Shown piece after piece: positions 4,040 through 60,528 of a stretch of 64,000 bases of DNA. Under the pieces are notes generated by a model. That model saw only the letters and a program-made list of their open reading frames with translations, did not search any database and was not told where the DNA came from. Within the stretch, counting starts at the first letter, position 1, and each line of letters starts with the position of its first letter. This DNA comes from Candidatus Nanoarchaeia archaeon. GTDB lineage: Archaea; Nanobdellota; Nanobdellia; SCGC-AAA011-G17; JACPNG01. The DNA is taken from the NCBI GenBank assembly GCA_028714375.1, contig JAQTMK010000001.1:136988-200987 (forward strand), given 5' to 3'. The position numbers were made by a program, and so were the translations under genes.

Positions 4040-4069
4040 AAAAATAAAAAAAGAAAGAAGTATTTAAGG

Positions 4070-10130: not shown

Positions 10131-10329
10131 AAAAGTAGCAAAAAAAGTTTTAAGCAAAAGAAACAGAGAATTAGCAAAAAGAGCTGCAAAAATAACTGTA
10201 AGGGAAGTTAGAAGAGTTGCACCAAAAGCAAGAAGAGAAGTTGAAAAAATATATCACTTTGGCAAGAGTGAAGCAAAAAAGATAATAATAGAGATTAAGA
10301 GATCTCCAAAAAAGAAGAAAAAGAAATGA
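10117..10329 (+). CDS. small Lys/Arg-rich basic protein (hypothetical)
   Basis: 70 aa, highly basic, poly-K tail. Overlaps the upstream stop and shares ATGA with the downstream peptidase gene, suggesting translational coupling. Confidence 0.35.
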   Translation: MKKIRKVAKKVLSKRNRELAKRAAKITVREVRRVAPKARREVEKIYHFGKSEAKKIIIEIKRSPKKKKKK

Positions 10330-12297: not shown

Positions 12298-12369
12298 GGG
12301 CGAATAGTATAAAGGATAGTACACGGCTTTGCGGAAGCTGGAATCGGGGTTCAATTCCTCGTTCGCCCG
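12298..12369 (+). tRNA. tRNA-Arg (anticodon GCG)
   Basis: Cloverleaf folded by hand: acceptor GGGCGAA/TTCGCCC, D-arm GTAT...GTAC with GG in the loop, anticodon stem CGGCT/AGCTG with loop TTGCGGA, T-arm CGGGG-TTCAATT-CCTCG, discriminator G, no encoded CCA. Confidence 0.75.
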
Positions 12370-12535: not shown

Positions 12536-13291
12536 ATGGGAAATAAATATTTAGAATGGATTGGAACTGGTTCAGGATTAAATTTTACATTAGGAAACAC
12601 TTCTTTTTTAATCAAAGGAGGAGAGAGAATCCTTTTAGTTGATTGTGGATATACAGTTCCATTAGAATTAATGAAATCTGGACAATTAAAAGATATAACA
12701 GATGTTATTCTGACTCATACCCATGCTGACCATATTGGAGGGATTGAAGGGTTTGCTTATATGAATTACTTTGCTTTTAAAAAAAGAGAAGACCAAAGGC
12801 CAAATCTTTACATTGCGACAGAAAAATTTGCACAGAGATTATGGAATAATTCTCTTAAGGGAGGATTAGAAAAGATACAAGATGAGGAGAATATCCCTCA
12901 AAATGTAACTCTTGATACTTACTTCAAGATCCATATTGGGAAACAGATAGATATTTTAGGATTACCAACTGCAACATTATTTCCAGCATCCCATGTCCAG
13001 GGAATGGAGAATTATGGAGTAAGTTTTGACAACGGAGTTTGGTATTCTGGGGATTCTTTAGACTTACCCAAAAACAATTCAAAACTAATTTTTCAAGATT
13101 GCCAATTCTACGAAACTATAGCCGATGTTCATGTATCTTATAACAGATTAAAACAAGAATTGTCTCCAGACGTTAAAGCCAAAACATATCTTGTTCATCT
13201 TGGTGGTGGTTGGGAACAAAAAAATCCAAAGGCAGATGGTTTTGCAGGATTTGTTATGCCTAAACAAAGATTTGATCTTGAATCCCTATAA
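12536..13291 (+). CDS. metallo-beta-lactamase-fold hydrolase
   Basis: LTHTHADHIGG (HxHxDH) motif with downstream His/Asp ligands. Confidence 0.75.
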   Translation: MGNKYLEWIGTGSGLNFTLGNTSFLIKGGERILLVDCGYTVPLELMKSGQLKDITDVILTHTHADHIGGIEGFAYMNYFAFKKREDQRPNLYIATEKFAQRLWNNSLKGGLEKIQDEENIPQNVTLDTYFKIHIGKQIDILGLPTATLFPASHVQGMENYGVSFDNGVWYSGDSLDLPKNNSKLIFQDCQFYETIADVHVSYNRLKQELSPDVKAKTYLVHLGGGWEQKNPKADGFAGFVMPKQRFDLESL

Positions 13292-14727: not shown

Positions 14728-15681
14728 TTAGACGTCCTGAATTCCATCATCAGTAACGCTAAATATACATTCTGCGTCGGGCATAGCAGGAGCATCAACC
14801 AGCTTGGCAACTCTTGTTCCTTTCTTGCCTCTTCTCACATAAACCCTGTAAGTACTTGCGTGAGCTAAGACATGTCCACCAATAGCTTCTGTTGGATCTC
14901 CAAAGAAAACATCTGGTTTAGACATAACCTGGTTTGTGATATAAACAGCAATGTTATAGGTATGTGCCAGTTTAAGCAGAGCATGTAAATGTTTGTTTAA
15001 TTTCTGCTGTCTGTCTGCAAGCTGCCCTCTTCCTGAAAAATCACTTCTAAAATGACCCATCAAAGAATCGACAACAACGAGTTTGACAGGTAAGCCTTCT
15101 TTAATCAAGTCTTCAACGTTTTCAGCCAGTAACATCTGATGGTCTGAATTAAATGCCCTTACACCTCTGAAGTTTTTTAATGCTTCATTTGGCTCTAATC
15201 CTTTTACCTTTGCAAGTTTTGCAAGATACTCAGGTCTTATAGTTCCTTCTGTATCAATCCAGACAGCCATTCCCTCTGCTCCGCCTTTGTCTTTTGGTAA
15301 CTGAACATTGACAGATAACTGATGTGCCAAAGAAGTTTTTCCAGAACCATAAGCACCATAAACTTCAGTTATTGCTCCAGTTTCTACTCCTCCACCCAAA
15401 ATTTTGTCAAACTCTTTGCTACCAGTACTGATCTTGATAACAGCTTCTCTTTTTCTCAGTAAATCCTCTCCAGACTCAAAACCCATGCTAAGTCCTTCTC
15501 TTGCAGCCTTGATTATTTTTCTTGCTGTAGCTTCAGTCACCCCAGCAACATTAACCAATTCTCCAGGACTTGAAACTGCTAAACTCATTAGATTATCAAA
15601 ACCTGCTTCAGATAGTTTTTCTGCTGTTGCAGCACCAACTCCTGGCAAGTCTTTAATTGTGATCTCTTTTTTTTCTGCCAT
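14728..15681 (-). CDS. radA: DNA repair and recombination protein RadA
   Basis: N-terminal HhH ([17 protein letters not shown]), Walker [22 protein letters not shown], RecA-fold length 317 aa. Confidence 0.9.
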
Positions 15682-15935: not shown

Positions 15936-16048
15936 TTTACCTCCGATTGCTTTCGCGTTTTATTTCAGTGGAGGTTTTCCACCAATAGAATTAGAAAACA
16001 GACCTTTGTTTATAAATCTTATTTGAGGTTGTCGTGAATCTATCTACT

Positions 16049-16930
16049 TTAGCATATACTTTTCAAATACTCATCCTTACTTTTAAATCCGTGTTTGTTT
16101 GCTAATTTTTTAATAGCTTTGTCAAATTTGCTTCCATACTGTGCAGCAAGTTTCTTTCTCTCACTTAATTCTTTATCATATTTTAAGTCTTTAGCTACCT
16201 CTCTTAACACAACTTTGCTCTGATTTTTAACAATCTTGTATTTTTCAGGAATTCTTAATGAATAATTAACCAAATCTTTATCTAGAAAAGGACATCTAAG
16301 ATTTACCTTGAAATATTCTGCTAATTTAGAATCCCTTATTAAATCTCTATTATAAATTTTCAATAAACCTCTTTGACATTCTTTGTTTATGTTTGAAGAT
16401 AGTCTATGTCTTTCATAACCAGCAAATATTTCCTCGCTTCCCAGGCCGGTAAAAACAGTTTTTATTTTGTCTTTTTTAGCTTGTTCTAAACAAAAATAGA
16501 CTGGAAGCCCAACCCCAACTGTAACAACATCATTTTTCCCGGTTATTTTGATTATTTTTGGAATTATTTTTTCAGCTTTATTTAATTTAATTTTAATAAT
16601 TTTTAATTTTAAATTATATTTCTTTGCAGCTTTTTTTGCATATATCAAGTCCTTTGCTGTATCCATACTTTTTTCATCTAAGACCGCAGTATAGCAGATA
16701 AAGTTTTTCTTATGTTTCTTAGACAGATACGCAATAAATCCAGAATCAATTCCGCCTGAAAATAATATCACAAATCTTTCTCTTGGCCATCTTTTCTCTA
16801 AAGCTTTGATAAATAGTTCTTTGACATTTGTTTTGATTATTTTTAGGGAATCTTTTATTTCAGGTTTTATTTTTAGATCTTTTTCTTTGATTTTTTTCCA
16901 GTAATTTACTTCTACCATAAAATAAATCAA
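16049..16930 (-). CDS. PP-loop ATP pyrophosphatase, asparagine synthase (AsnB) C-terminal-domain-like
   Basis: PP-loop VILFSGGIDSG and the AsnB-type GSEEIFAGYERH motif; no N-terminal glutaminase domain. Confidence 0.6.
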   Translation of the reverse strand: MIYFMVEVNYWKKIKEKDLKIKPEIKDSLKIIKTNVKELFIKALEKRWPRERFVILFSGGIDSGFIAYLSKKHKKNFICYTAVLDEKSMDTAKDLIYAKKAAKKYNLKLKIIKIKLNKAEKIIPKIIKITGKNDVVTVGVGLPVYFCLEQAKKDKIKTVFTGLGSEEIFAGYERHRLSSNINKECQRGLLKIYNRDLIRDSKLAEYFKVNLRCPFLDKDLVNYSLRIPEKYKIVKNQSKVVLREVAKDLKYDKELSERKKLAAQYGSKFDKAIKKLANKHGFKSKDEYLKSIC

Positions 16931-16980
16931 TAAACTAATTTAATAAAACTTGTCAATATATATGTATATATAATTAGAAT

Positions 16981-17009
16981 AAAAAAACCAGCTAAAAAAC
17001 GCTAGCTGG
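16981..17009 (-). terminator. hairpin plus T-tract terminator after the 17031-17456 gene (minus strand)
   Basis: CCAGCTA...TAGCTGG 7-bp stem followed on the minus strand by TTTTTTT. Confidence 0.4.
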
Positions 17010-17030
17010 TAAAAAATGATTCTAAGATTA

Positions 17031-17456
17031 TCACTTAACCCTCTTGCCAACTACTTTTAAATGCCAACTCCCCAACGAACCCTTGAGAAGAAGTGAACCT
17101 TCTCTAAAATCATCAAGAAGTTTTGTTCCAACTTTAGTCTGATTATAGAAGGATTTACTAACTGGAAGTTCAAAAACAATTTCATTTAATCCATCTGCAA
17201 TTTGTTCTTCCAAGTCTAAGGAGTAATGTATTTGTCTTAATTCTATTTTCAGAAGATATTCTTTTCCGATTTCTCCTTGTACACTTTGTTTTTTTGCAAT
17301 TAGTTTTTCGATATCCTTCTCTAGTTGGGTTTTTTGTATAAGAAGTTTTTCGATGTCTGATTTAATAGCCTCCTCAGGTGTCTGACCAAACAGGACAACT
17401 ACAAGGGTTAAGATCAACGATAGCGTAATTAATGTTTTCTTCATCGCCTTCTCCAA
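17031..17456 (-). CDS. secreted coiled-coil protein (hypothetical)
   Basis: N-terminal signal peptide, then KLLIQKTQLEKDIEKLIAKKQ coiled-coil region. Confidence 0.45.
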   Translation of the reverse strand: MEKAMKKTLITLSLILTLVVVLFGQTPEEAIKSDIEKLLIQKTQLEKDIEKLIAKKQSVQGEIGKEYLLKIELRQIHYSLDLEEQIADGLNEIVFELPVSKSFYNQTKVGTKLLDDFREGSLLLKGSLGSWHLKVVGKRVK

Positions 17457-17590
17457 TCAGTTAAATTGTTAATCTTCCAAGGTTTTCCCTTAATTTCAGA
17501 AATCAGGACAGAGTTTAATCTAAGGGATCACCTCGTTAAATTCATTAAAACAACAAAGAAAACCAGAATATGTTTAATATTTAAAACTTC

Positions 17591-18583
17591 CTATAAAGAA
17601 TTAACAACTTCACTCAAAACTTTTTTGACATCAACTTTTTCAACATAATTCCCAGTAAACTCAACTCTCTGGAACATTTCGTTTTTATTTGTTCTTCCAG
17701 AAACTTTAATTAATTCACCCAAAATATTGTCTTTTACAGAATTAAACAAATCAGGATTTTTCCTTATCTCTAAGATTGTCTCATCATCCAATTTTAAAAT
17801 TTTCTTTGCATTATCTCTAAAAAGAACAGTTCTTATTGCTTCAGATCCGTCATCAAGATAAAAATTTAAGATAGGAACAGGAACTTCTTTCACAATCCCA
17901 TGCTCATTGCATTTAAATGCTCCATCCTCAAAAATAACTTTTTTGTTGCATTCAGGACATGAATCATAAAATCTTAAGTCAAAAACCTGAACAATAGTCC
18001 CTTGTATTGTTGTGTTTTGATTTTCACCCAAATCTTTAATCTTAACTACACTCCCTCTATCAATTTCTTTGTTAACATCAGCGATTACAACACCGGCAGG
18101 ATTGATTTCAATCTTTGAATCATTAGTAAGGTGAATTTCTTTTCCAAAATTATTCTCTTTGATATAAAAATTATCAACCCTTAGTATATCATTAGGATTT
18201 ACAGTTTCAATAGTGTTTATTTGGTTAGAATCCCAGATAACCAGCCTGCAGGTTCCAGAATCATCTCCAATAAGCAAATTCTGTACCTTGCCAATCCTTC
18301 CGTTTTTGTTAAACTCCCTGACATCATACTTTGCTATGACTTTGGAATTTAGAGTAACTCCTCTAACCCCAGAAAATAAATTTTTGATCTTAAAATCCTT
18401 CTTGGTGTTTTCAAATATTTTAACACCCAATTCATTTGCAACAATATGTGCAGCACCAGTATTGCTTATTAATCCAGAAAGTTTAGTTAACTTATCATTA
18501 ACTCTGAAATTGACGTCTTCTTTGCTAAGACCTTTCTCACTCATAATTCTTTCTATGATCTCTTCATAGGTTGTACCAAACAT
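17591..18583 (-). CDS. replication protein A (RPA)-like ssDNA-binding protein
   Basis: OB-fold-like segments with a C4 Zn finger (CPECNKK...CNEHG) between them; archaeal RPA architecture. Confidence 0.65.
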   Translation of the reverse strand: MFGTTYEEIIERIMSEKGLSKEDVNFRVNDKLTKLSGLISNTGAAHIVANELGVKIFENTKKDFKIKNLFSGVRGVTLNSKVIAKYDVREFNKNGRIGKVQNLLIGDDSGTCRLVIWDSNQINTIETVNPNDILRVDNFYIKENNFGKEIHLTNDSKIEINPAGVVIADVNKEIDRGSVVKIKDLGENQNTTIQGTIVQVFDLRFYDSCPECNKKVIFEDGAFKCNEHGIVKEVPVPILNFYLDDGSEAIRTVLFRDNAKKILKLDDETILEIRKNPDLFNSVKDNILGELIKVSGRTNKNEMFQRVEFTGNYVEKVDVKKVLSEVVNSL

Positions 18584-18601
18584 TAAAATTCTCCCCCTTT
18601 T

Positions 18602-19420
18602 CTAAACATTAAATTGCTTAGAATTTTCAGTTTTTAAGTTTATTGGAAATCTAGAAGTAGTTTTATAAAAATAATTAAAAGTTATGGTTAATGGAACTGT
18701 TACATAATCTCCCTCAAATTTATATGGAATCTTGCATGGAGCACCAGTAAAACCTTTTTCTTCAAGATCTACCATGCTCTTGCAAATTGTATTTTCATTC
18801 CCTATTTTTACATTTAGATCAGAAACATAATAAACTTCATTCTTTTCTTCTAAAGAATTAATTAATTTTCCGCCACCCTTATTGGCGATGTCAATTTTAA
18901 GGGCTATTATCCCTGCGTCAGTATATTCTGCAATAACACTGATTATAGTTACAGGATATCTTGCTGCAAAATTGTTTCTTGGAGCTAGATTGATATTGTA
19001 AACACCCTTGGTTATTTTTGCTGTATAATCCTGTTCAAATTCAACACCATAATAAACATCTGCGGTAACTTGCAATTTTTCTGGATTTTTATAATTTTCA
19101 TTAAACAAAACAGAAATGTCCTTTGGTTCGATTAATTTATTATTCTCATAACTTATTCCTTCAAGACTAAACCCTTCATACCTTTCAGCATTTTCATTAT
19201 CCCAAAGTTCAATCATTCCCTGAGTCGCTATTGGCATATTGTTTTTTAATATTATCTTAAATTCAACATCATAATTTTTATCTGAAGCAGGGTATATATC
19301 TATTACTGAAGGATTTGTACTGATATCAATTCCCCTGTTTGGAGTGGACTCAGTTTTTTCTCCAGACTTACATCCAACTAACAAAACCAGTACAAACATT
19401 AAAAATATTATTTTTTTCAT
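18602..19420 (-). CDS. lipoprotein (hypothetical), last gene of the pilin-like operon
   Basis: Signal peptide with lipobox LLVGCKSG; start overlaps (ATGA) the stop of the upstream 488-aa gene. Confidence 0.5.
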   Translation of the reverse strand: MKKIIFLMFVLVLLVGCKSGEKTESTPNRGIDISTNPSVIDIYPASDKNYDVEFKIILKNNMPIATQGMIELWDNENAERYEGFSLEGISYENNKLIEPKDISVLFNENYKNPEKLQVTADVYYGVEFEQDYTAKITKGVYNINLAPRNNFAARYPVTIISVIAEYTDAGIIALKIDIANKGGGKLINSLEEKNEVYYVSDLNVKIGNENTICKSMVDLEEKGFTGAPCKIPYKFEGDYVTVPLTITFNYFYKTTSRFPINLKTENSKQFNV

Positions 19421-20883
19421 ACTCTATCTTCTTCTATTTTTTTAATCATGACTCCAACTGATTTCTGATAATTAAATGTGTAGTCCGCAGTTACAGTCAT
19501 TTTAGTTGAAGTATAAGGTCTTATATTTAAGTTGGGTTCCTCGCTTAATTTTAATTTACATGGAATCTCAAATGTGTTTATATTATCCCCAAGAACCATG
19601 CATGTGTTTCCATCATATTTTTTATTGAATGGGGGTGCACTCCTTTTGTTTATTTCATCCAAAACCTCTTTCTTTAATGTGCCATCGTTTTCAAAACATC
19701 CGCAGTTCTGGTTTTCCATTTCCAAACCTCTTGGTATGTTCATTTTAAGACTTTTTATCTTTTCTATTGCTCCAATCCCTTCTTTTTCTACTTTAATCAT
19801 AATTAGTGGATTATTCTGAATTGTAAATGGCTGATAAGAACCAGCACCTATTGAAATTTTAACAGGCCCAGAATCAAGTTTCACTGATTTAACTAAATCA
19901 TTTTCTAGTAAGCCAGTTGTTTTTGGATCATTTTTAATCTCATAAAATACATCTTCGATGTTTTCATTTTCAGCGGTGGTTAAGAATAATAATTGTTCTG
20001 TTTCTGCATGGCTGTCATAACTTATGTTTAAACTGGCAGCTTTTGTTTCAACATTGTTTTTTATTTCTTTGATCCCATCTGGAAAATTACATATAACAGT
20101 ATTTGTTCTTGAATTTATTGTTCTAGCTTCATTTGGAATAATATTATTGATCACATACTTACCGTCTTCTGAAACCTTAGAAGTGCCACCAACTGTATAT
20201 TCTGGTTTGCCATCATAATCCTCTAATTCACAAACAATTTTTAAATCTAAACTTATTTGGCCTTCATTTAATGTTACCCCATTTATAGTATATTTTCCAT
20301 TTATGCTGACTGGGTAATTTTCATAAAAAGGACCATTGGATTCTAATTGAGTAATTTCAACTCCTTTTAGTGGTCCAGTTGTTTTAGCACTAGGATCTGT
20401 CCACGATCCAAATGATTCTTCTGGATGTAAAATCAAACCAACAGTATTTGTGATTAATTTACCTATTTGTTGAATCCCTTCGTTAGATTTAGCCCATATA
20501 CTGATTCCTTCTGTTCCTGCTGAAAAAAATCCAGAACTCATCCATACAACTAGGACAATTATACCAATTATTATCAGCCATTTCCCCCAGTGTTTTGGTT
20601 GTTTAAGTATGGTTGTACTTGGTCCAGAAGATTGTTGGGCAGGAACTTGTTGAGGTGCAGAACGTCTACCACCAGCTCCAATAATCCCTTTTAATGCATT
20701 CCATCTAGCATTCCTTGTTTTCCATGTATTTGCATTAAAAGATGCTTTTCTAGATCTCCTTTCCATTCTTTTATCAGATCTTTCAGCACTTCTTCCAATT
20801 ACACTGAATATTTTTTTAAAAAATCCTCTTTTTTCTTTTGGAGCAGAACTGTCTCCCCCTCCAGTAGATTCTATAGATCCCAT
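19417..20883 (-). CDS. single-pass membrane protein with basic cytoplasmic N-terminus and large extracellular domain
   Basis: About 100 aa R/K-rich N-terminal region, one TM (WLIIIGIIVLVVWM), then a roughly 380-aa extracellular domain. Confidence 0.5.
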   Translation of the reverse strand: MGSIESTGGGDSSAPKEKRGFFKKIFSVIGRSAERSDKRMERRSRKASFNANTWKTRNARWNALKGIIGAGGRRSAPQQVPAQQSSGPSTTILKQPKHWGKWLIIIGIIVLVVWMSSGFFSAGTEGISIWAKSNEGIQQIGKLITNTVGLILHPEESFGSWTDPSAKTTGPLKGVEITQLESNGPFYENYPVSINGKYTINGVTLNEGQISLDLKIVCELEDYDGKPEYTVGGTSKVSEDGKYVINNIIPNEARTINSRTNTVICNFPDGIKEIKNNVETKAASLNISYDSHAETEQLLFLTTAENENIEDVFYEIKNDPKTTGLLENDLVKSVKLDSGPVKISIGAGSYQPFTIQNNPLIMIKVEKEGIGAIEKIKSLKMNIPRGLEMENQNCGCFENDGTLKKEVLDEINKRSAPPFNKKYDGNTCMVLGDNINTFEIPCKLKLSEEPNLNIRPYTSTKMTVTADYTFNYQKSVGVMIKKIEEDRV

Positions 20884-20907
20884 TTTTTCCTCTTTTTAAT
20901 ATTTTAT

Positions 20908-21570
20908 TTACTTTAAATTATTTAAATCTATCTCAGCTTTGATAACCTGATTCTCATAATTAATCTCAACAATAACTTTTGTTTTTTCCTTGTTTAAAAC
21001 TTTAAAATCATAACTTTTGTCAAAACATGCTTCTAATTCTTTTTTCTCTTCATCATCCTTTAGATTTTCCTTTACACTAATTAAACAGTCTCTTCTGTAA
21101 GATTTATTAAATTCCTTGAAATCAAACAAAACAAAATCATATGAAAAATCTAAATTTTTACTGTAGGTTATCTTTCCTTCTTTTTCCTGATATGAAATAA
21201 TCCCGTCAGTCCAGTAAATCCTGTCTTTGGTTTTCCCAATTATTTTTCCATTTATGATTGAAATCTCATAGTTTGTAGGCATGTTATTTAATTTAAGCAA
21301 TTTATAAAATTCATTTGTAAATTGGTTCTTGAAATCATACTCTTCATTATAGTTTTTTGAAGCCTTTTCAGCACTAATTCTTACAGAAGAATCAAGATAA
21401 AACAATTCTGCTTCAACATCATTATACGCATCTATCAAGCTTAAGGAATTATCTCCAACTTCTTTTAATCCAGTTCTTTTAATATCAAACAAAAACATTG
21501 CAGATAAAAGTATTAGGATTATTCCGATTGTTGCCAAAGGCAATGTCATGTCAGTTCCTTTCTTATTCAT
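20908..21570 (-). CDS. pilin-like protein with class III signal peptide
   Basis: Internal start MNKKGTDMTLPLATIGIILILLSAMFLF (KG then hydrophobic helix). The ORF-track start is 8 codons further upstream. Confidence 0.5.
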   Translation of the reverse strand: MNKKGTDMTLPLATIGIILILLSAMFLFDIKRTGLKEVGDNSLSLIDAYNDVEAELFYLDSSVRISAEKASKNYNEEYDFKNQFTNEFYKLLKLNNMPTNYEISIINGKIIGKTKDRIYWTDGIISYQEKEGKITYSKNLDFSYDFVLFDFKEFNKSYRRDCLISVKENLKDDEEKKELEACFDKSYDFKVLNKEKTKVIVEINYENQVIKAEIDLNNLK

Positions 21571-22069
21571 CTTTTTCAGTTCTTGCAATTGCAAGTTTAA
21601 TTTTTACAAGTTTATCCTGATAAGGATATTTTACTTCAGCTTCGCTTTTTATTGGGAATTGGTTTAGCATTTTATCTTCCCACATATCTTCATTATAACC
21701 TGCTCCGAGTGGAACAATATACTCATCATAAATCTCTCTTTCATCAATAAACATCTTCCATAAACATTCTTCATTAATTTTGCAATAACCATTAATCAAA
21801 GGTTTCATAACAGCTATGATTTTGCTTTCATCCTCTTCGTTTTCAATAACAAAATCAGATAAGTATTGATCCTCAACTTTTGTTTTTAATAAATTAATAA
21901 GAAGCAGATTAACATCCTCGTCTACTCCTTTAGTGATAATTTTTTCTTCAATATCAGAGCCTTTCTTAAAACTTGAACTTAAACTAAAAAAGAAAAGAGC
22001 TAAGATTAACACAAATGCAAATATGGAAAGAATATCTTTTAATGGAAATACCTCACCTCTCTTATTCAT
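21563..22069 (-). CDS. pilin-like protein with class III signal peptide
   Basis: MNKRGEVFPLKDILSIFAFVLILALFFFSL. Confidence 0.55.
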   Translation of the reverse strand: MNKRGEVFPLKDILSIFAFVLILALFFFSLSSSFKKGSDIEEKIITKGVDEDVNLLLINLLKTKVEDQYLSDFVIENEEDESKIIAVMKPLINGYCKINEECLWKMFIDEREIYDEYIVPLGAGYNEDMWEDKMLNQFPIKSEAEVKYPYQDKLVKIKLAIARTEKDE

Positions 22070-22496
22070 CTAATATTACCCCCATTTCTAAAAGTTTAAG
22101 TTTGTTTTCAACAAGAACATATTTTTTTTCAGAATAACAATTCTTTTCTAATTTACATAAATTTAATTGGTCTTTATAACTTTTAATATCGTTGGAAATT
22201 TCCTTATCACCAATTTTTGCATAAATTAAATTATCAGTACTGATGCAGTTTTTTAATCTCTCTTCTGTAAATTTATTCATATCGATTGTTCCAGGATAAA
22301 CTCTTAGGTCTTCCAAAGCAAAGCAATCACTGCTGTAAAACAATCTCTTCATCATTAAGTCAGATTCAAAATTACCAACCTTAATCTCTTGATTCACAGC
22401 TAAGTGTAATACAGCCACAACTGCAGCAACCATAATACCCAAAACAACCAAAATCAATACCTGATAAGGTAATTTTTCTCCCAAATCAGAACTCAT
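22062..22496 (-). CDS. small secreted/membrane-anchored protein, possible atypical prepilin
   Basis: MSSDLGEKLPYQVLILVVLGIMVAAVVAV: Gly then charged residues then a hydrophobic helix, but no K/R before the G. Confidence 0.4.
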   Translation of the reverse strand: MSSDLGEKLPYQVLILVVLGIMVAAVVAVLHLAVNQEIKVGNFESDLMMKRLFYSSDCFALEDLRVYPGTIDMNKFTEERLKNCISTDNLIYAKIGDKEISNDIKSYKDQLNLCKLEKNCYSEKKYVLVENKLKLLEMGVILDE

Positions 22497-22822
22497 GAAC
22501 TCACCTCAAACTTTCTTTCTTCCTGTTTCCAGTTTAATTTAGTAACATTACTTGGATAATAATTAAAATTAAACAACCCCTGTTTAACTAAATTTATTGT
22601 TATTTCCAAATCATCATCCTTATTTATATCATAAGATATCTTTGAATTCTTGCTAAGATAAAGTGTATCCAAAGTTAAACCAATATCAATTGTATTTGCT
22701 CTTCTCTCAAGAGCTCTTGAATTTTTAAAACTAGCAACATAATATCCCAATGAAGCAACCACAATTACAGCAACCAGTATTGAAAAAAGCATAAATAACT
22801 GCATCTCCCCTCTTTTTTTCAT
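22493..22822 (-). CDS. pilin-like protein with class III signal peptide
   Basis: Internal start MKKRGEMQLFMLFSILVAVIVVASLGYY. The ORF-track start 16 codons upstream is probably spurious. Confidence 0.5.
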   Translation of the reverse strand: MKKRGEMQLFMLFSILVAVIVVASLGYYVASFKNSRALERRANTIDIGLTLDTLYLSKNSKISYDINKDDDLEITINLVKQGLFNFNYYPSNVTKLNWKQEERKFEVSS

Positions 22823-22859
22823 GTTAAGAATTAGATTTATAGTATTTATATTAGTTTTG

Positions 22860-23339
22860 TTAAGCAACACTATACTTTCCAGATTCGAGTTTTACGTTTA
22901 CCGGTCTCAAGTCATCAAGATTGGATAAGACTACCCCAGAACTAATAAAATCATAACTCAAAACTTTACAAACCATAAATTTTTGTTCTTCAGTATTATA
23001 AACACAAATGCAGGATAATTCTTTGCACTGGATGTTTTTTTCTATCACCTTATCATCAAAAGCTTTCAAAGAACCTTCAGCTGAAAATTTATTCTTTGCA
23101 TATATTGTGTATTCATCGCTTATCTGCATCGGAATACTTGTTCCTTTGCCTTCTTCAAGTCCTTTTAATGTAGTATATAGATCGTTAAAACTGTTATCAG
23201 TTGCAGAATCCATTTCAACTTCATCAGGAATTAATGTTTTGTATAAATCTGTTAAAAATGTAGCTACAACCAAAGTTACAATAATACCTAAGATTAATAA
23301 GATAAGAAACTTTAAAGTCATTAAACCTCTTTTATTCAT
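22860..23339 (-). CDS. pilin-like protein with class III signal peptide
   Basis: MNKRGLMTLKFLILLILGIIVTLVVATFL; preceded by the duplicated promoter element. Confidence 0.55.
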   Translation of the reverse strand: MNKRGLMTLKFLILLILGIIVTLVVATFLTDLYKTLIPDEVEMDSATDNSFNDLYTTLKGLEEGKGTSIPMQISDEYTIYAKNKFSAEGSLKAFDDKVIEKNIQCKELSCICVYNTEEQKFMVCKVLSYDFISSGVVLSNLDDLRPVNVKLESGKYSVA

Positions 23340-23368
23340 TAAATTAAAATAAAAAAGAAATATATAAA
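23337..23368 (-). promoter_or_regulatory. duplicated promoter/start element, copy 1 (includes ATG of gene 22860-23339)
   Basis: Identical 32 nt CATTAAATTAAAATAAAAAAGAAATATATAAA. On the coding strand this is TTTATATA (TATA-box-like) about 22-29 nt upstream of the ATG. Confidence 0.6.
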
Positions 23369-23386
23369 CTTAATTAAAAATGAACT

Positions 23387-23722
23387 TTAGTAATTTACTG
23401 CCTTTTTATATTTATTTGATTTTAGTGGGGGATGAATTAAGTCGGGAAGGACATTATAATAGAACTTTGCCCAATAATCTTGGATAATCCTGTGTGAGTG
23501 GCCATTAAAGAAGCCAAGTTTTCTTACTTCCTCTTGTAATTTTATTTCAAGATCCCTGAGATACCCATCTACGATTGGTATTGATGGGATTTCTTCCCCC
23601 CCAGAAGAATAAGATATGTCCCTTTTAAATTCTGCTAAGATTTTATTTCTATTCTGATCAATAAACTTACAAAACTCCTCATAACAACTTTTCTCTAAAC
23701 TTTTAAGATTTGAATTATCCAT
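23387..23722 (-). CDS. hypothetical cytoplasmic protein inside the pilin-like operon
   Basis: 111 aa, no signal peptide; preceded by copy 2 of the duplicated promoter. Confidence 0.45.
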   Translation of the reverse strand: MDNSNLKSLEKSCYEEFCKFIDQNRNKILAEFKRDISYSSGGEEIPSIPIVDGYLRDLEIKLQEEVRKLGFFNGHSHRIIQDYWAKFYYNVLPDLIHPPLKSNKYKKAVNY

Positions 23723-23751
23723 TAAATTAAAATAAAAAAGAAATATATAAA
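23720..23751 (-). promoter_or_regulatory. duplicated promoter/start element, copy 2 (includes ATG of gene 23387-23722)
   Basis: Exact 32-nt match to 23337-23368. Confidence 0.6.
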
Positions 23752-23760
23752 ATTATGTTT

Positions 23761-24120
23761 TTATGCACAAGAAACCGTACAACTGATTAACTCATTGCAA
23801 TGAACTCCACTCTTAACCACACTTGTTGTAGGATCTAAAATATCAAACTCTTTTTTGCAATAAGCAGAATCCGATGCAATGAATTTTTGACTATTTGTTC
23901 TTTGCTCTTCTTTAGCTGCATCACAATACTGATTGCAGAACTGAATTGCTAATGATCTGTCAGTTCCAGCTGTTCCCTGGAAAAATATTCCTTTTATCTT
24001 ATCAGTTGTTCCTTTAAATCCGTATAGGAAGAAAAATACAACTGCAACTAAAACAATAATTACGATAATCGCTATAATAATTGTATTAAGAGAAATTTCC
24101 GCTCCTTTTTTATTAAACAT
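23761..24120 (-). CDS. archaeal type IV pilin-like protein (canonical class III signal peptide)
   Basis: MFNKKG|AEISLNTIIIAIIVIIVLVAVVFFFLYGF: KG-A cleavage-site pattern and a long hydrophobic helix. The track start (24129) appears to be GTG; the ATG at 24120 is preferred. Confidence 0.65.
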   Translation of the reverse strand: MFNKKGAEISLNTIIIAIIVIIVLVAVVFFFLYGFKGTTDKIKGIFFQGTAGTDRSLAIQFCNQYCDAAKEEQRTNSQKFIASDSAYCKKEFDILDPTTSVVKSGVHCNELISCTVSCA

Positions 24121-24218
24121 ACATTTCACCTCTAATTCAATTAAAACTTCTTGTTTTATTTAAATGTTTTGGTATACTATTTATAAAGAATTTTAAAGCC
24201 TTATAAAAAGAAAATAGT

Positions 24219-24680
24219 TTACTTGAGTTTATCAGGTCCTCTTTCTAAGATTTTGTAAAATTGAACAGCCATAAATTGTGTGTTATTTAAGTTTATACTT
24301 GAAACCCCAAAGTTCCCCCCTCCCAATGTTCCATAATCACCAATCACTACTGCATCTGGTTGATCCCTATACGAAGAAAGTATCCCTTTTTCAAGAAGTT
24401 TTTCTAAATCAGACTTTAATCCATCTAAATTAGATTGATCTAATCCATCAGTTTCAATAAATTCATTATCCATGTACCCCCCAAGATAAGGGAATCTTTT
24501 TAGATCTTCTTTTGTGGATTTTGTGATTTCAGGAGTAGTCCGGTTGTAAACTTCCATGATTTGGGGGGCTCCAATTGGTTGGACTTTAAGACAATTTAAT
24601 CTTATATCTATAAACTGTTCATACTTCTCTCCATCCCGATCATCACAACAAAATATAATTTCTAAATCAAGTTTCTTCAT
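24219..24680 (-). CDS. hypothetical protein
   Basis: 153 aa, no recognisable motif; local GC looks higher than surroundings. Confidence 0.45.
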   Translation of the reverse strand: MKKLDLEIIFCCDDRDGEKYEQFIDIRLNCLKVQPIGAPQIMEVYNRTTPEITKSTKEDLKRFPYLGGYMDNEFIETDGLDQSNLDGLKSDLEKLLEKGILSSYRDQPDAVVIGDYGTLGGGNFGVSSINLNNTQFMAVQFYKILERGPDKLK

Positions 24681-24755
24681 AAAAATATAGTGATTTCTTA
24701 ATTTAAAAACAATTTGTAAATTTAAAATAGATAATTGAAGTATTTATTAAGGAGA

Positions 24756-25358
24756 TCACACACTAAATTGTTTAATTCTTTTTCTCCTTCTCCAGTACCA
24801 GTAAGCAACAGCGATTACAACAATACCAACAAGTAAACTGATAGTCTCAAAGTATTTATCAATAAAAGCGATGATAGGATTTCCAAAGAACATAATCAAG
24901 CCACCAACTAAGAAGAATCTCAATCCTCTTCCGATTATAGAATATATTATTAAAGTTCTTAATTTAATATAAAAGACACCAGAAGCAATTGTAAATACTT
25001 TATATGGAATTGGGGTAAAACCAGCAATGAAGATTGCCAAACCCCCATGTTTTTCAAATAATCTATGGACTTTGTCTATTTTTTCCTGTTTGAATAACTT
25101 ATTTAATATTGGTCTCCCACCAACATAACCAATCCCATATCCAAATATAGCCCCCAAAACACTACCAACTGTGCAGACTAAAGAAAACCATAAAGCGTTT
25201 TTAGGATCAGCTAAACATAATATAATCAGGAGAATGTCTGGTGGAACAGGAAAAAAACTTGATTCAATAAATGCTAAAACAAATAACCCCAAACTTCCTA
25301 AAGGCTGAAAAGTTAATTTTGTCCAGTCTACCAAACTAGTTATTAAACCCATAAACAA
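24756..25358 (-). CDS. DedA/YqaA (SNARE-associated, TVP38) family membrane protein
   Basis: FIESSFFPVPPDILLI and following TM pattern typical of DedA/YqaA proteins. Confidence 0.7.
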   Translation of the reverse strand: MFMGLITSLVDWTKLTFQPLGSLGLFVLAFIESSFFPVPPDILLIILCLADPKNALWFSLVCTVGSVLGAIFGYGIGYVGGRPILNKLFKQEKIDKVHRLFEKHGGLAIFIAGFTPIPYKVFTIASGVFYIKLRTLIIYSIIGRGLRFFLVGGLIMFFGNPIIAFIDKYFETISLLVGIVVIAVAYWYWRRRKRIKQFSV

Positions 25359-25389
25359 AGAAATAAAAATGCCTTTAAATTACTTTCGT

Positions 25390-26304
25390 TTAAATCTTAT
25401 CGCCCTGTAAAATCCATAAATCTTCAGTTGTTAATTTTTTCTTATTCTTAATTTTTTGTTCTATTTCTCTTTTTCTTCCTTCAATAAACTCATTAGGTTC
25501 TTCCCTTTTCTCAAAAACTCTTTTTGGTCTTTTAATTATCTGAGGTCTAGGTATTTCTGCCTGTGAAACTTTTAACTGCAATAATTTTTCTTTTAGATCA
25601 TTGTTTAATATTGAAAATTCTTTTTTGAATTTGATAAAGTTGTCAAAAGCATCTTCCTGTTCTTTTTTGATTCTGTTTATCTCCTTGCTTATTTTTAAGA
25701 ATTCAGAATAACTTTCATTGTTTCTTAATTCCTCAAGTTTGCTGTGAAAATCATTGGCTATCTTTCTTTTATCTTTGAAATCCTTTCTTAGGTTAATATA
25801 TTTTTCATTTAGGTTTGTTTGAGTATTAGATTTTTTTAGTTTGTCTTTTAATTCTTTTAATTTAACCATTGTGGCTTTTTCTTTTGAAAAACTTAGAACA
25901 TCTGTTTGTATACTTAATTCTAATCTTTCAATGGTTTCTTTGATGTTTTTGTCTTCCTTGTCAAATCTTACCTTTCTTTTCTCTTCGCTGACTTTTTTAA
26001 GTTCTTCAGCAATGATTTTGACTTCAGCATTGAATTTATCTCTTTCTTTCTTTATATTTTTAAGTTCTTTGTCTATTTCCTTCTTTTTATCCTGTATTGC
26101 CTTTGCCTTTGTTATGTTTTCAGCAAGAACTTTCTTTAATTCTTCTTTCTTCGCAAACCAGGTTTCTTTTTCAGCATTAATAGAATTTAGTTTATCTTTT
26201 AGCTCTTTTATTTCGTTTTTCAATGAATCTAGTTTTTCCTTATCCATTTTTTGTGTCCCAATCAAAACAGTTGTCTTAAGATATAATTTCTGTAAAATCA
26301 CCAC
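25390..26304 (-). CDS. Lys/Glu-rich coiled-coil protein (hypothetical)
   Basis: 304 aa, almost entirely heptad-like K/E repeats. Confidence 0.45.
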   Translation of the reverse strand: MVILQKLYLKTTVLIGTQKMDKEKLDSLKNEIKELKDKLNSINAEKETWFAKKEELKKVLAENITKAKAIQDKKKEIDKELKNIKKERDKFNAEVKIIAEELKKVSEEKRKVRFDKEDKNIKETIERLELSIQTDVLSFSKEKATMVKLKELKDKLKKSNTQTNLNEKYINLRKDFKDKRKIANDFHSKLEELRNNESYSEFLKISKEINRIKKEQEDAFDNFIKFKKEFSILNNDLKEKLLQLKVSQAEIPRPQIIKRPKRVFEKREEPNEFIEGRKREIEQKIKNKKKLTTEDLWILQGDKI

Positions 26305-26314
26305 TTTAAAAAGG

Positions 26315-26938
26315 TTATGCTTTTATCTTATTTATCAGATATTTGATATCATCTATTAAAGGAATTGATTTTACCTTAAATCTGTAAACCAGAAATACCC
26401 AGACCAGGAAAACATAGACTGTAGAGAGAACATTCCAGATTAAAAAATGTAAATTCTCAAACATGTTGATATTGTTATTCAAAAAATAATATAATAAAAC
26501 AGTAATCCTTATTATATTGCCAATAAATATAAATAAACAACCTGAAATAAATATTTTTAGTCGTTTAACCCACTTCATTCTTGTTAACATCACCAAAATA
26601 AATAACAAAAAGTAAGCAGAGGTTGCGATACAGGCAGGAATAAAACTTAATATAGTATTATTATATACTAAATAATCAGAACCAATCACAATTCCTTTTG
26701 AAATCCAGAAAACTCCGCTTAATAACAGTGTAGGTTTTAAAAAAATAAAATAAAACAAATTAAAAGGGATCAATAAAATAACCAATACTAAACAAATTCT
26801 TAATATTAAGTCTTTATAATATCTCACAAGACCAAACAATAACCTAAATATAAAAACCTTTTTAAGAAAACAAAACCTGATAATTACAATGAAAAAATAT
26901 TTTATTCCTATAATTTCGCTTTTTGTTTTGACAATCAT
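26315..26938 (-). CDS. exosortase/archaeosortase-family-like polytopic membrane protein (tentative, small ArtE-like size)
   Basis: Multi-TM protein with a conserved-looking Cys in a TM (IPACIATSAYF) and an N-x-x-R motif (FIGNIIRITVL), as in the exosortase/archaeosortase family. The 5' end overlaps the divergent PAP2 gene, so the true start is likely internal or non-ATG. Confidence 0.4.
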   Translation of the reverse strand: MIVKTKSEIIGIKYFFIVIIRFCFLKKVFIFRLLFGLVRYYKDLILRICLVLVILLIPFNLFYFIFLKPTLLLSGVFWISKGIVIGSDYLVYNNTILSFIPACIATSAYFLLFILVMLTRMKWVKRLKIFISGCLFIFIGNIIRITVLLYYFLNNNINMFENLHFLIWNVLSTVYVFLVWVFLVYRFKVKSIPLIDDIKYLINKIKA

Positions 26939-27470
26939 CGGTTCTTTTTTTATAGATCAGGAAGTTGCTATAGGAATCTTTAAGTTACAGGACCCAATTT
27001 TAACAACTATTTTTGTGTATTTTAGTTATATTTTCACAAATCTGACAATATTCTTGTTTGGTGCTTTATTCTTAATAAGAAACAAGACAATGATCCCCTA
27101 TATGACATTAGGGTATCTGGTTCATGGATTTTTTCATATTATAATTAAATTTTTTATAAACAGACCAAGACCATTTATAGAGATTTCACTAAAACAAATA
27201 GAGGGGTTTTCATATGATTTTGCTTCTTGGAATACAACTTTTCCTAGTTTTCATGTTGCAGCGATGTTCTTTATGATACCTTTTATATTCAAACTAAAGA
27301 GCAAGTTAAGATATGTTTGGGTAGGTCTGGCAGTTTTAATGGGCATTGTAAGGATTTATTCGGGGGTTCATTATTTAAGTGATATCTTGGCTGGTGCACT
27401 TGTTGGTTTAGCATTTGGTTATTTGACACTTTATATCTACGAAAAAAAAGCCCGAAACCTTTTTAAATAA
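26889..27470 (+). CDS. PAP2-family (type 2 phosphatidic acid phosphatase-like) membrane phosphatase
   Basis: Three PAP2 motifs: KFFINRPRP, PSFH, SGVHYLSDI. Confidence 0.75.
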   Translation: MKKYFIPIISLFVLTIIGSFFIDQEVAIGIFKLQDPILTTIFVYFSYIFTNLTIFLFGALFLIRNKTMIPYMTLGYLVHGFFHIIIKFFINRPRPFIEISLKQIEGFSYDFASWNTTFPSFHVAAMFFMIPFIFKLKSKLRYVWVGLAVLMGIVRIYSGVHYLSDILAGALVGLAFGYLTLYIYEKKARNLFK

Positions 27471-27599
27471 TGCATTTATGGCAGTATTTACAACCACAGG
27501 TCTTTTTGACCACACAAGTATTATACATCTAGTTTGATTTCTACATCATTATTAAATCTTCACGGAAGACCTGTAAAACCCATTAAATAAGGAGATTTT

Positions 27600-27767
27600 A
27601 TGGGATCAGAAATTAGTGGAAATGAAAGCCTCAAAAACGGGATTAATGGAGGGGAAGAAAACGATAAAGAAAATACCTCCACAAAATCGCCAAAACCAAA
27701 ATTTCGTCGTCCAAGTCGCAGAAGCAAAAGAAAAAGAATTCCGCCTCCAAAAACTTTTCATCGTTAA
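27600..27767 (+). CDS. small basic protein, 55 aa (speculative)
   Basis: Strong ribosome-binding site TAAGGAGATTTTATG. Translation MGSEISGNESLKNGINGGEENDKENTSTKSPKPKFRRPSRRSKRKRIPPPKTFHR*. Uses CGT/CCG/TCG codons atypical for this genome. Confidence 0.25.
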   Translation: MGSEISGNESLKNGINGGEENDKENTSTKSPKPKFRRPSRRSKRKRIPPPKTFHR

Positions 27768-27826
27768 ATTTTCCACTATTTTTAACACTTAATTGAATTA
27801 GGAGGTGCCTAAGAAAAGAGGATTTT

Positions 27827-28333
27827 ATGAAAAAAATAATATTCATAATCATAATATTTCTGCTTTTAACAACCACAATCTTTGGCAAAGGATTTGGATT
27901 TGATATGTCCTTCGGATATTTTTTTGGAGAATTCAACGAAATAGACTCAGATTTTGTATGGGGGGCGGGCGGTTCTTACTCTATTGATGATACCCTTACA
28001 TTAAATATTAGTATTATAAGATCTGCCAATGAGATAAGAGAACCTGAAAATAAAGAAATTAAAATAGATTATTTCTTGTTCGGAGCCACAATCCAACTAT
28101 CCAAAATAATATTTATTGGTGGAGGCATATCATATACTTCTCTCCGTGAAAAAACAGAATCCGGAACTCTGGATGATATGGGATTTGGAGGATTTATTGA
28201 AACTGGTGCCAGATATCTAATCGATGAGGATATCAACAACATAACAGTCGGCGGGAGAGTTATGTACAGTTACAATAAGGTAGAAGATGAAAACATCGGA
28301 GGAATCTTTCTGATATTTACTATTGGATTTTAA
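27827..28333 (+). CDS. secreted protein with outer-membrane beta-barrel-like sequence pattern
   Basis: Signal peptide, then alternating hydrophobic/polar beta-strand-like segments (GARYLI, GGRVMYSY, IGGIFLIFTIGF) and a C-terminal Phe. GGAGG ribosome-binding site upstream. Confidence 0.45.
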   Translation: MKKIIFIIIIFLLLTTTIFGKGFGFDMSFGYFFGEFNEIDSDFVWGAGGSYSIDDTLTLNISIIRSANEIREPENKEIKIDYFLFGATIQLSKIIFIGGGISYTSLREKTESGTLDDMGFGGFIETGARYLIDEDINNITVGGRVMYSYNKVEDENIGGIFLIFTIGF

Positions 28334-32630: not shown

Positions 32631-34664
32631 ATGAGGTTTGATAAATCTATAATTTTCATAACCCTATTAATTCTATTTTCGTTTTCAGTTTCAGCAGAAA
32701 TTGGAACAAGCCCTGACAATTGTAAGGGAAAAGACTTAACCGACCATATTTTTAATGATAATTTAATTACAAATGGTTGGAATAATTTATACCAGCAGAT
32801 GCAGGTTAATGATGTTCATACAATCAGCTTCAAAGGTATAAGCAATGACAATCCAGATCCAATAACAGTAACCTATTCTTTGTTTTACTGTAAAAGAGCA
32901 TGTGATTTGAACGGAGATGGAAAAGTCACTGCAGCAGATGCATGTTCAGATCATTTAGTTCTTCAACAAAAAACAGTCATAGAAGCAAATTCTAAAAAAG
33001 ATATTACTATAAATTTCAAGCCAGCTCAGGAAGGTTGTTATCAGTTAGATTGGGCTGTTGAAAAAATTGAAAACTCTCAGTGTTCTTATTTAGATAAAAC
33101 CTACTGTGAGGATTGTACATTTTTGGCTTATCTTGTAGATACTTCATGTAAGGCAGGTTCAACCCAAACAAGAAAATGTGGTTACTCTGATGTTGGAGAA
33201 TGTAGTTATGGAACTAAAACTTTAACCTGTACAGCCCAGTCACAGTTAATTGGTCCAACAAGTTATTGGAAATATGGAATTTGCATTGGAGCAACCTATC
33301 CAACAACAGAAATCTGTGACCAGAAAGACAATGACTGTGATGGTTTAATCGATGAAGACAATGTTTGTGAAGTTCCAGAATGTGAAGATGGAGAAACACA
33401 AACACAGCAATGTGGAATAACTGATGTTGGAATTTGCGAATACGGACATAAAGAAAAAATCTGTGAGAATGGCTCATGGGGAAATTGGGGTGATTGTATT
33501 GGTGCCATTAATCCTTCAACAGAAATATGTAATCAGTTAGATGATGATTGTGATGGGTTGATAGATGAAGGCGATGTTTGCCCTCCAGAAGAATGTTACA
33601 CTAATGATGACTGTGATAATGGTTTGTATTGTGATGGTGAGGAAATCTGCATAGATAACGAGTGTTATTCAGGAACAGAAATTAATTGTAATTTATACAA
33701 TATTCCAGGAATAAATACTTGCTACAATAGTCCAGACAGCAATCCATACACATTAGATTATAGAAATGCATTTACTTCAACCTGTAACGAAGATTTAGAT
33801 ATGTGTACAATTGGAAGTAGCATAATATCTCATATTTGTTATTATGGTTGTGGAGCAGAATGTATTGATTCTTGTGAAAAAACAGAATGTGATTACTTAG
33901 ATGGTTGCTATGGAAATGATTACTATGATTACAGTGATGTTTCAAACCTATGTAATTCCTGTTTATGTAGTCATAATGAATGTGGTCTTCCAGTAATTTC
34001 TGAAAATGATCCAAGATGTGAACAACCAGAATGTACAGAAGGAGATATTGATATTGTTTCCTGTGGTATGACCGATGTTGGAGAATGCTCTTATGGTCAG
34101 AAACAAAGAATATGTATTGATGAAGAATGGACAGACTGGAGCGAATGCGTTGGAAGTGTAAATCCAACAACAGAAATCTGTGACCAAAAAGACAATGACT
34201 GTGATGGTTTAATCGATGAAGACAAAGTCTGTGAAATATGTGTTCTGAATAAAACCAGACTTGATGGGGAAAATGGATTTATTGATCACATAAATGAATT
34301 TACAAATGAAGACTTTACAAAAAATAAGATTGATTTCAAGGCTTGGGTTTCAAAATCAGACAAGTACACAGGATATGTTATAGTTTCTGTGACAGGAACA
34401 ACCACAGATGGTGGAAGACTTTCTTTGAAATTAAAAGGTAAAGTAAGAAACGTCTATGAAAATACCTGTGAAGCATTTAACGTTGAAAATTCCTGGTGGA
34501 GTTTAGCTACCTACAGAGCACCAAATTCCAAGAAAACAGAAAAAATCCATCTGGATAGCATCTGGTATGAATGGAACAGGGAAACTAATTTGTTAAATGT
34601 CTACGGAATTGGTCCTGACATTGACTTTGAAATAAACAACATTGAAATTGAATCAAAGTACTGA
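32631..34664 (+). CDS. secreted Cys-rich protein with MopE-like 'putative metal-binding' repeats
   Basis: Signal peptide; three ~60-aa repeats each ending C(D/N)QKDNDCDGLIDED; many paired Cys. Confidence 0.6.
   Translation: MRFDKSIIFITLLILFSFSVSAEIGTSPDNCKGKDLTDHIFNDNLITNGWNNLYQQMQVNDVHTISFKGISNDNPDPITVTYSLFYCKRACDLNGDGKVTAADACSDHLVLQQKTVIEANSKKDITINFKPAQEGCYQLDWAVEKIENSQCSYLDKTYCEDCTFLAYLVDTSCKAGSTQTRKCGYSDVGECSYGTKTLTCTAQSQLIGPTSYWKYGICIGATYPTTEICDQKDNDCDGLIDEDNVCEVPECEDGETQTQQCGITDVGICEYGHKEKICENGSWGNWGDCIGAINPSTEICNQLDDDCDGLIDEGDVCPPEECYTNDDCDNGLYCDGEEICIDNECYSGTEINCNLYNIPGINTCYNSPDSNPYTLDYRNAFTSTCNEDLDMCTIGSSIISHICYYGCGAECIDSCEKTECDYLDGCYGNDYYDYSDVSNLCNSCLCSHNECGLPVISENDPRCEQPECTEGDIDIVSCGMTDVGECSYGQKQRICIDEEWTDWSECVGSVNPTTEICDQKDNDCDGLIDEDKVCEICVLNKTRLDGENGFIDHINEFTNEDFTKNKIDFKAWVSKSDKYTGYVIVSVTGTTTDGGRLSLKLKGKVRNVYENTCEAFNVENSWWSLATYRAPNSKKTEKIHLDSIWYEWNRETNLLNVYGIGPDIDFEINNIEIESKY
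33300..33361 (+). repeat. 62-nt intragenic direct repeat, copy 1
   Basis: CCAACAACAGAAATCTGTGACCAGAAAGACAATGACTGTGATGGTTTAATCGATGAAGACAA; one mismatch to the copy at 34164-34225. Confidence 0.8.
34164..34225 (+). repeat. 62-nt intragenic direct repeat, copy 2
   Basis: Near-identical to 33300-33361. Confidence 0.8.
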
Positions 34665-60516: not shown

Positions 60517-60528
60517 AGCTGTTTTGGA
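60501..60528 (+). repeat. 28-nt direct repeat, copy B (contains the stop of 58966-60516)
   Basis: Exact match to 58905-58932. In the alaS frame it encodes RIRRIKAVLE*. Confidence 0.85.

Follow-up and report, generated by a model that had tools for sequence, protein, structure and literature searches.

Genes that lie between the two copies of a direct repeat of at least 30 bp, one without further copies, and that are accompanied by no mobility gene have been described as insertions with long target duplication (Furuta et al. 2010; PMC2853133). The reported cases are bacterial restriction-modification (RM) genes; in some of them, such as those from Haemophilus influenzae, the repeat and the end of an adjoining gene overlap, and no archaeal RM system survived the repeat-flank screen (PMC2853133). 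The same work discusses the classes of flanking repeats, among them the long target duplications of transposons such as IS1630, at 19 to 26 bp (PMC2853133); that of ISH2 from Halobacterium is 55 bp (PMC7002104). Here, we analyze a 64-kb stretch of the genome of a Candidatus Nanoarchaeia archaeon (contig JAQTMK010000001.1, positions 136,988 to 200,987; the whole stretch is called the window below), in which the 32-mer CATTAAATTAAAATAAAAAAGAAATATATAAA occurs exactly at 23337-23368 (R1) and at 23720-23751 (R2). The two copies bracket a single gene for a 111-amino-acid (aa) protein within a cluster of pilin-like genes.

Insertion with long target duplication is the closest described phenomenon, and the likely cause falls within this known but poorly understood class of rearrangement. 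As there, genes in the window are bracketed by a two-copy repeat of ∼30 bp that is unique within the window; this holds both for R1/R2 and for a second pair, described below, that overlaps the end of a flanking gene. No transposase or integrase was found among ∼58 window open reading frames (ORFs) scanned with Pfam and NCBIfam, all ORFs adjoining the inserts included. Unlike in the described cases, the genome is archaeal, the cargo genes encode a small helical protein and a radical-SAM enzyme, and one of the targets is a predicted leaderless promoter with its ATG, so that the duplication would supply expression signals. Transposon target-site duplications likewise are direct repeats flanking an inserted segment, but here no transposase was found, and no inverted repeats, terminal or otherwise pairing the insert ends, were seen among the 25 longest of 51 inverted pairs in 22800-24250.

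The repeated sequence itself has a well-described counterpart. Leaderless archaeal genes, as in the "group D" genomes of GeneMarkS-2, have a promoter box ∼26 nt from the start codon, and leaderless-rich archaeal genomes combine leaderless first genes with Shine-Dalgarno-led internal genes (PMC6028130). R1 and R2 resemble such promoters in their TATA spacing, the lack of a Shine-Dalgarno sequence, and an A/T-rich melted region, and the genome in the window has the same dual layout. They differ in that these two neighbors are identical across all 32 nt, the unconstrained spacer included, and in that their promoter activity is a prediction. With that qualification, R1 and R2 are two exact copies of what is otherwise an ordinary leaderless promoter of archaea.

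The repeat pair and its predicted promoters

The repeat copies and the genes next to them are as follows.

23337-23368, minus strand: R1, repeat copy 1, predicted TATA-to-ATG core promoter of the 159-aa pilin-like gene; near-identical span 23332-23372
23720-23751, minus strand: R2, repeat copy 2, same predicted core promoter plus ATG, for the 111-aa gene; near-identical span 23715-23755
23361-23368, minus strand: predicted TATA box TTTATATA of R1, at -29 to -22 relative to the ATG
23744-23751, minus strand: predicted TATA box TTTATATA of R2, at -29 to -22 relative to the ATG
22860-23339, minus strand: 159-aa pilin-like gene, class III (type IV pilin-like) N-terminus MNKRG/LMTLKFLILLILGIIV
23387-23722, minus strand: 111-aa gene between the copies, PHE43_00945, hypothetical protein; soluble helical bundle, uncharacterized family
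23761-24120, minus strand: 119-aa pilin-like gene upstream of R2, N-terminus MFNKKG/AEISLNTIIIAIIV; has a GAGGTGA Shine-Dalgarno leader of its own, with TATA boxes farther away

An initial annotation of this DNA had reported an exact 32-nt duplication that includes the ATG of two minus-strand genes, and this is confirmed. CAT at 23337-23339 is the ATG of the 159-aa ORF, and CAT at 23720-23722, within R2, is that of the 111-aa ORF. The spacing from R1 to R2 is 383, and their likeness extends over 41 nt with 2 mismatches (23332-23372 versus 23715-23755), outside of which nothing aligns. No third copy of the 32-mer exists in the window, even with up to 3 mismatches allowed, and the word was absent from 100 dinucleotide shuffles. 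In 30 Markov-simulated windows, exact direct repeats within 6 kb reached at most 18 nt, which excludes chance as the source of a 32-nt repeat. Exact searches with the 27-nt core came up empty in reference genomes (GTDB species genomes, 596 Gb), in IMG/VR, and in JGI metagenomes; hence, it is not the frequent A/T word that the initial annotation had named as the case that would speak against it.

Contigs assembled with k = 31 are expected to break where the reads truly hold a repeated 32-nt word. The Logan assembly of run SRR22315509, made with this k, gave contigs identical to the window and broken at both copies: one (L001; window 15941-23366) ends within R1, and another (L002; window 23722-27996) begins within R2. 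We therefore regard the repeat as genuine in the reads and not as an assembly artifact. We rejected a CRISPR-like array because only two copies exist, the spacings are 383 and (for the second pair) 1596, and cas genes are absent; a 383-bp unit duplicated in tandem was rejected for lack of similarity beyond the 41 nt.

On the coding strand, both copies read TTTATATA-TTTCTTTTTTATTTTAATTTA-ATG, that is, TTTATATA-N21-ATG, with the octamer centered 25.5 nt from the ATG; the 21-nt spacer is T-rich and contains neither a G nor a Shine-Dalgarno sequence. A TATA-like octamer starts at -33 to -28 in 12 of 62 window genes, versus 2.2 expected from the intergenic octamer density (P about 2e-6), and the boxes of R1 and R2 fall in this modal class, which is enriched at least 5-fold. 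The 12 genes lack a Shine-Dalgarno sequence, with one borderline exception (32631-34664, AGAGG at -12); Shine-Dalgarno-led genes of the window have GGAGG or GAGGT at -15 to -5 and TATA farther upstream. From this enrichment of TATA-N21-ATG among genes without a Shine-Dalgarno sequence, we read R1 and R2 as, very probably, archaeal core promoters of leaderless mRNAs, in line with the initial proposal of a promoter-plus-start-codon module with a TATA box ∼25 nt upstream. The sequences directly upstream of TATA, where a purine-rich B recognition element (BRE) would lie, are A-rich and differ between the copies (AATTAAG in R1, ACATAAT in R2). A scan for bacterial sigma-70 promoters and hairpin terminators gave no enrichment and is not relevant for an archaeon.

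Each copy also contains a run of six T's.

23351-23356, minus strand: T6 tract in R1, candidate oligo-T terminator for transcripts arriving from the 111-aa gene
23734-23739, minus strand: T6 tract in R2, 22 nt past the stop codon of the 119-aa gene and a candidate terminator for it

U-tracts reportedly end transcripts in archaea (PMC8716108). Tracts of T5 or longer lie within 50 nt after the stop codon of 30 of 64 window genes, versus 9.6% of coding sequence windows, and the R1 tract is preceded by a T5 behind the 111-aa gene. The T6 tract within each copy may thus have a second function, terminating the transcript that comes in from upstream, and T6, TATA, and ATG together would make each copy a compact terminator-promoter-start module. 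As a full leaderless core promoter, each copy would place the transcription start on the A of the ATG or directly beside it, and no 5′ untranslated region or ribosome-binding site would be required for either transcript. R2 would drive the 111-aa gene, and R1 would drive the 159-aa gene and probably the string of genes behind it.

Promoter consensus does not explain the identity of R1 and R2. Other leaderless promoters of the window share only 14.2 ± 3.3 of the 32 positions (∼44%), with a maximum of 25, reached by one related module:

4037-4068, minus strand: R3, related predicted leaderless promoter of gene 2825-4039; 25/32 identical to the repeat in ATG register

The flank of R3 matches that of R1 at 9 of 10 positions (common sequence TTTAATTAA). 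Such low pairwise sharing supports recent copying of one of R1 and R2 from the other; the recent duplication suggested initially thus gains support. In R3, the stop codon of the upstream gene immediately precedes the TATA box.

The bracketed gene and a second repeat pair

The protein encoded between the copies has no known family: it has no Pfam, NCBIfam, or PHROG model and no informative fold match. Its AlphaFold2 (AF2) model is a confident helical bundle, with a predicted local distance difference test (pLDDT) score of 86.6. The family comprises 15 representatives at an E value of <1e-3, which share the motif EIPxVPLFDxYL…FYYSSLPNL, and lacks PHROG, phage, or plasmid matches. Four homologue contexts (L003, L004, L007, and L011) are varied; none has adjoining pilin-like genes or any neighbor gene in common with the window, and the repeat-gene-repeat signature is absent around homologues in other genomes. 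Because the homologues lie outside pilin clusters and share no neighbors, the 111-aa gene looks foreign to the cluster, a stranger with the same 32 to 41 nt on both sides. Its product, a soluble helical protein, belongs to a separate family and is not a pilus subunit, which leaves no basis for the idea that the duplicated promoter tunes the stoichiometry of pilin subunits.

The family (proteins P0003 to P0019) includes an internally duplicated member (P0004, 206 aa) and two fused ones (P0018, 359 aa; P0019, 219 aa, extended at its N terminus by a Cys-rich stretch). In the Woesearchaeota contig L003, a TGTAGTT-N5-AACTACA-like dyad lies directly upstream of TATA at several promoters (positions 43-73, 1675-1705, 4563-4626, and 8327-8390), one of them the promoter of the 111-aa homologue. 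This dyad looks like the operator of a small regulon, a phenomenon distinct from the R1/R2 pair. Around R1 and R2, a shared regulator site, as suggested initially, may exist, but no convincing palindrome, dyad, or other operator-like feature was found.

The window contains a second repeat of this geometry.

58905-58932, plus strand: second pair, copy A, the last codons of alaS (…GIRRIKAVLE-stop)
60501-60528, plus strand: second pair, copy B, the alaS 3′ end repeated exactly over 28 nt at the end of the radical-SAM gene

The copies of this 28-mer are spaced at 1596, and the repeat reaches 33 nt when 2 differences are allowed. They lie at the end of alaS (57158-58936) and at the end of the adjacent gene for a B12-binding radical-SAM protein (58966-60516). 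Copy B holds the last four codons and the stop codon of the radical-SAM gene and, in another frame, still encodes IRRIKAVLE followed by a stop; the 2 differences just past the 28-nt core (GAA TAA versus GAG TAG) do not alter what the alaS frame encodes. Both copies lie on one Logan contig. The window AlaRS itself, at only 592 aa, stops directly behind its tRNA_SAD domain; its four closest relatives (L012 to L015, 46 to 47% identity) match over a similarly short ∼1.75 kb, and most others over ∼2.1 kb.

Two genes with repeat domains aside, R1/R2 and the 28-mer pair are the only direct repeats above chance within 6 to 8 kb in the window, a result that holds for exact repeats and at ≥27/32; older, decayed footprints were not found in the window at the latter threshold. 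Each pair brackets exactly one gene. No comparable pair was present in 665 kb of 84 other (control) loci, whose repeats were tandem coding repeats and multicopy palindromic elements only. The duplicate of the alaS end has no plausible regulatory role and looks like a mechanical footprint; by analogy, the promoter pair looks like one as well. The repeat-gene-repeat geometry and this nonpromoter case thus point to a footprint of insertion or recombination instead of a selected regulatory design.

Proposed insertion footprint and competing explanations

The explanation we favor, at a probability of roughly 55%, is that the repeats are the footprint of a gene insertion or relocation, either with long target duplication (reportedly also described by Nobusato and Kobayashi in 2000) or by short-homology recombination. 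The copying of R1/R2 would then most likely have been a side effect of the arrival of the unrelated 111-aa gene between two pilin-like genes. With a leaderless promoter and its ATG as the duplicated target, the newcomer and the resident gene would both keep full expression signals. Strict duplication by a staggered cut is improbable, since the insert would have to start in frame and precisely with the second codon of the 111-aa ORF. For this reason, we favor short-homology recombination between leaderless promoters that resembled each other, which could take the form of a single crossover of a looped-out fragment or of conversion accompanying relocation; we infer both this mechanism and the direction of copying.

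Besides the codon 2 problem, several points weigh against this explanation. The homologue contexts read number only four. The G+C content at third codon positions of the 111-aa gene (0.295 versus a window mean of 0.246 ± 0.038) is no outlier and thus gives no compositional sign of foreign origin. The search for further copies of the 32-mer covered 64 kb of a 382-kb contig, and promoter and terminator functions are predicted from position and consensus. Finally, no close relative that could reveal an empty site was found: the 111-aa protein and a 488-aa protein of the cluster have close matches only to themselves, an RPA-based locus search gave no relatives, an AlaRS-based search gave 80 loci with a best identity of 47% and none with a neighbor gene common to the window, and exact-protein look-ups for the 111-aa, radical-SAM, and AlaRS products returned no record.

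The main rival dispenses with insertion: two resident leaderless promoters that were already similar would have undergone gene conversion, their identity maybe being kept for equal strength or coregulation. We hold this as a tentative second choice. Promoters of this genome share one architecture, and R3, already identical at 25 of 32 positions, shows that a homologous anchor is available; moreover, the repeat boundaries coincide with functional boundaries, from TATA to ATG, and the N terminus of the 111-aa protein looks native for its family. Yet conversion leaves unexplained the alaS/radical-SAM pair, equal in length and geometry but without a shared function. The converted partner would be the nearest neighboring promoter, and the two enclose a gene that looks like a stranger to the cluster, as a local insertion or duplication predicts; no partly converted intermediate pairs were found in the window.

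An extension of the insertion explanation would make it a habit of the lineage. An active, uncharacterized process of single-gene insertion or shuffling would leave exact direct repeats of ∼30 bp at gene boundaries, and the leaderless promoter with its ATG would serve as a portable site of expression and recombination. The footprint density, 2 in 64 kb versus 0 in 665 kb of other loci, underlies this idea, to which we give little credence at present. If it were true, any ORF dropped behind the module would be expressed immediately, and a repeat-flanked gene could loop out and reenter at similar promoters, much like an integron cassette without an integrase.

Still less likely is that the two pairs represent attL/attR cores delimiting tiny cassettes that lack an integrase, analogous to CIME-type or satellite elements and mobilized in trans by a site-specific recombinase encoded elsewhere. 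A length of 28 to 32 bp is typical of att cores, and many integrative elements target the 3′ ends of genes, which the duplicate restores. Both pairs have exact cores of this length, and the 3′ end of alaS, an essential gene, is regenerated by its duplicate. Against this stand the lack of any tyrosine or serine recombinase or integrase among the ORFs scanned and the unrelated sequences of the two cores, which one recombinase would not serve. In addition, each insert consists of one ordinary gene (0.35 and 1.6 kb, respectively), and the 111-aa family is without PHROG, phage, or plasmid matches.

Independent convergence on an optimal promoter, or a shared transcription factor operator, with no copying at all, is very improbable: both sites are promoters of one architectural class, but the 21-nt spacer, under no known sequence constraint, is identical at every base where the class otherwise shares ∼44%, and the sites lack dyad symmetry. 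Equally improbable is a chimeric join at a shared k-mer, in assembly or binning, that misplaced the 111-aa gene; the k = 31 graph is ambiguous and Logan contigs break at the repeat, but the published contig crosses both copies, which requires k-mers or reads of >32 nt over each junction, the flanking sequences do not differ between the two assemblies, and one Logan contig spans the analogous 28-mer pair.

The pilin-like cluster and the meaning of the proposed footprints

Around the repeat pair, a string of small genes runs on the minus strand from 24120 down to 18602. Its further members, and a peptidase gene elsewhere in the window, are listed here.

22493-22822, minus strand: pilin-like gene, K/R-G plus hydrophobic N terminus
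21563-22069, minus strand: pilin-like gene, K/R-G plus hydrophobic N terminus
20908-21570, minus strand: pilin-like gene, K/R-G plus hydrophobic N terminus
18602-22822, minus strand: downstream gene string as a whole, tightly packed or overlapping, probably cotranscribed from R1
10326-11174, plus strand: prepilin (class III signal) peptidase, Peptidase_A24, 51.1 bits versus a cutoff of 26.5

Five genes of the string have clear class III N termini, with a basic tip, K/R-G, and then a hydrophobic helix of ∼20 residues; those of the three further pilin-like proteins read MKKRG/EMQLFMLFSILVAV, MNKRG/EVFPLKDILSIFAFVLIL, and MNKKG/TDMTLPLATIGIILIL. A sixth gene (22062-22496) has a looser N terminus, DLG plus a hydrophobic helix. 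The label "pilin-like" refers to this N-terminal motif alone: curated pilin and archaellin hidden Markov models from Pfam and NCBIfam matched none of the string genes, even at E values of ≤0.1 to 1. The AF2 single-sequence model of the 159-aa protein (pLDDT, 45.7) is confident only in the N-terminal helix and was too poor to use in a fold search. At the tail of the string, the 488-aa protein (19417-20883) has no homologue besides itself among 5.8 billion proteins, and the 272-aa protein (18602-19420) belongs to no Pfam or NCBIfam family. Genes for a pilus assembly ATPase or membrane platform were not found among the window ORFs scanned and may be located in another part of the genome.

Later genes of the string overlap, are Shine-Dalgarno led, and have no T-tracts after them; R1 is probably the main promoter of the 159-aa gene and of the pilin-like string downstream. 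The initial annotation had placed both copies inside a single operon as internal promoters, which is probably not the case. R2 likely serves a monocistronic foreign gene, R1 is likely the main promoter of the string, and the upstream 119-aa gene has its own Shine-Dalgarno leader.

The window has a G+C content of about 31% and contains the archaeal markers RadA (14728-15681) and RPA (17591-18583). A pacearchaeosortase (26315-26938, minus strand; NF033505, 105.8 bits versus a cutoff of 80) places the organism among Pacearchaeota-like DPANN archaea. A metallo-beta-lactamase-fold protein (12536-13291, plus strand), next to tRNA-Arg(GCG) at 12298-12369, scores 69.3 bits with Anti-Pycsar Apyc1 versus a Pfam cutoff of 50 and may simply be an RNase Z-like enzyme. 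Nearly all other repeats of the window lie in two large plus-strand genes, 32631-34664 and 43914-48476, composed of many diverged Cys/Asp-rich repeats (DNA motif GA(T/C)AATGA(C/T)TGTGATGG…ATTGATGA, protein D-N-D-C-D-G-x-I-D-E).

The finding comprises one duplicated promoter and one analogous case (n = 2) and is not a new mechanism or kind of element; two such footprints within 64 kb are nevertheless noteworthy. For annotation, the pair marks real start codons, the leaderless class, and a probable monocistronic insert within the pilin-like cluster. The direct repeats predict easy loss of the 111-aa gene by recombination. In leaderless genomes, the ∼30 bp from TATA to ATG are a complete expression signal, and a duplication of ∼30 bp during insertion would suffice to switch on a new gene and leave its neighbor undisturbed. 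If such footprints are typical, genes gained or relocated recently in DPANN archaea could be recognized by them in a simple way; with close relatives seldom sequenced, the gene flux of these tiny genomes is otherwise difficult to follow.

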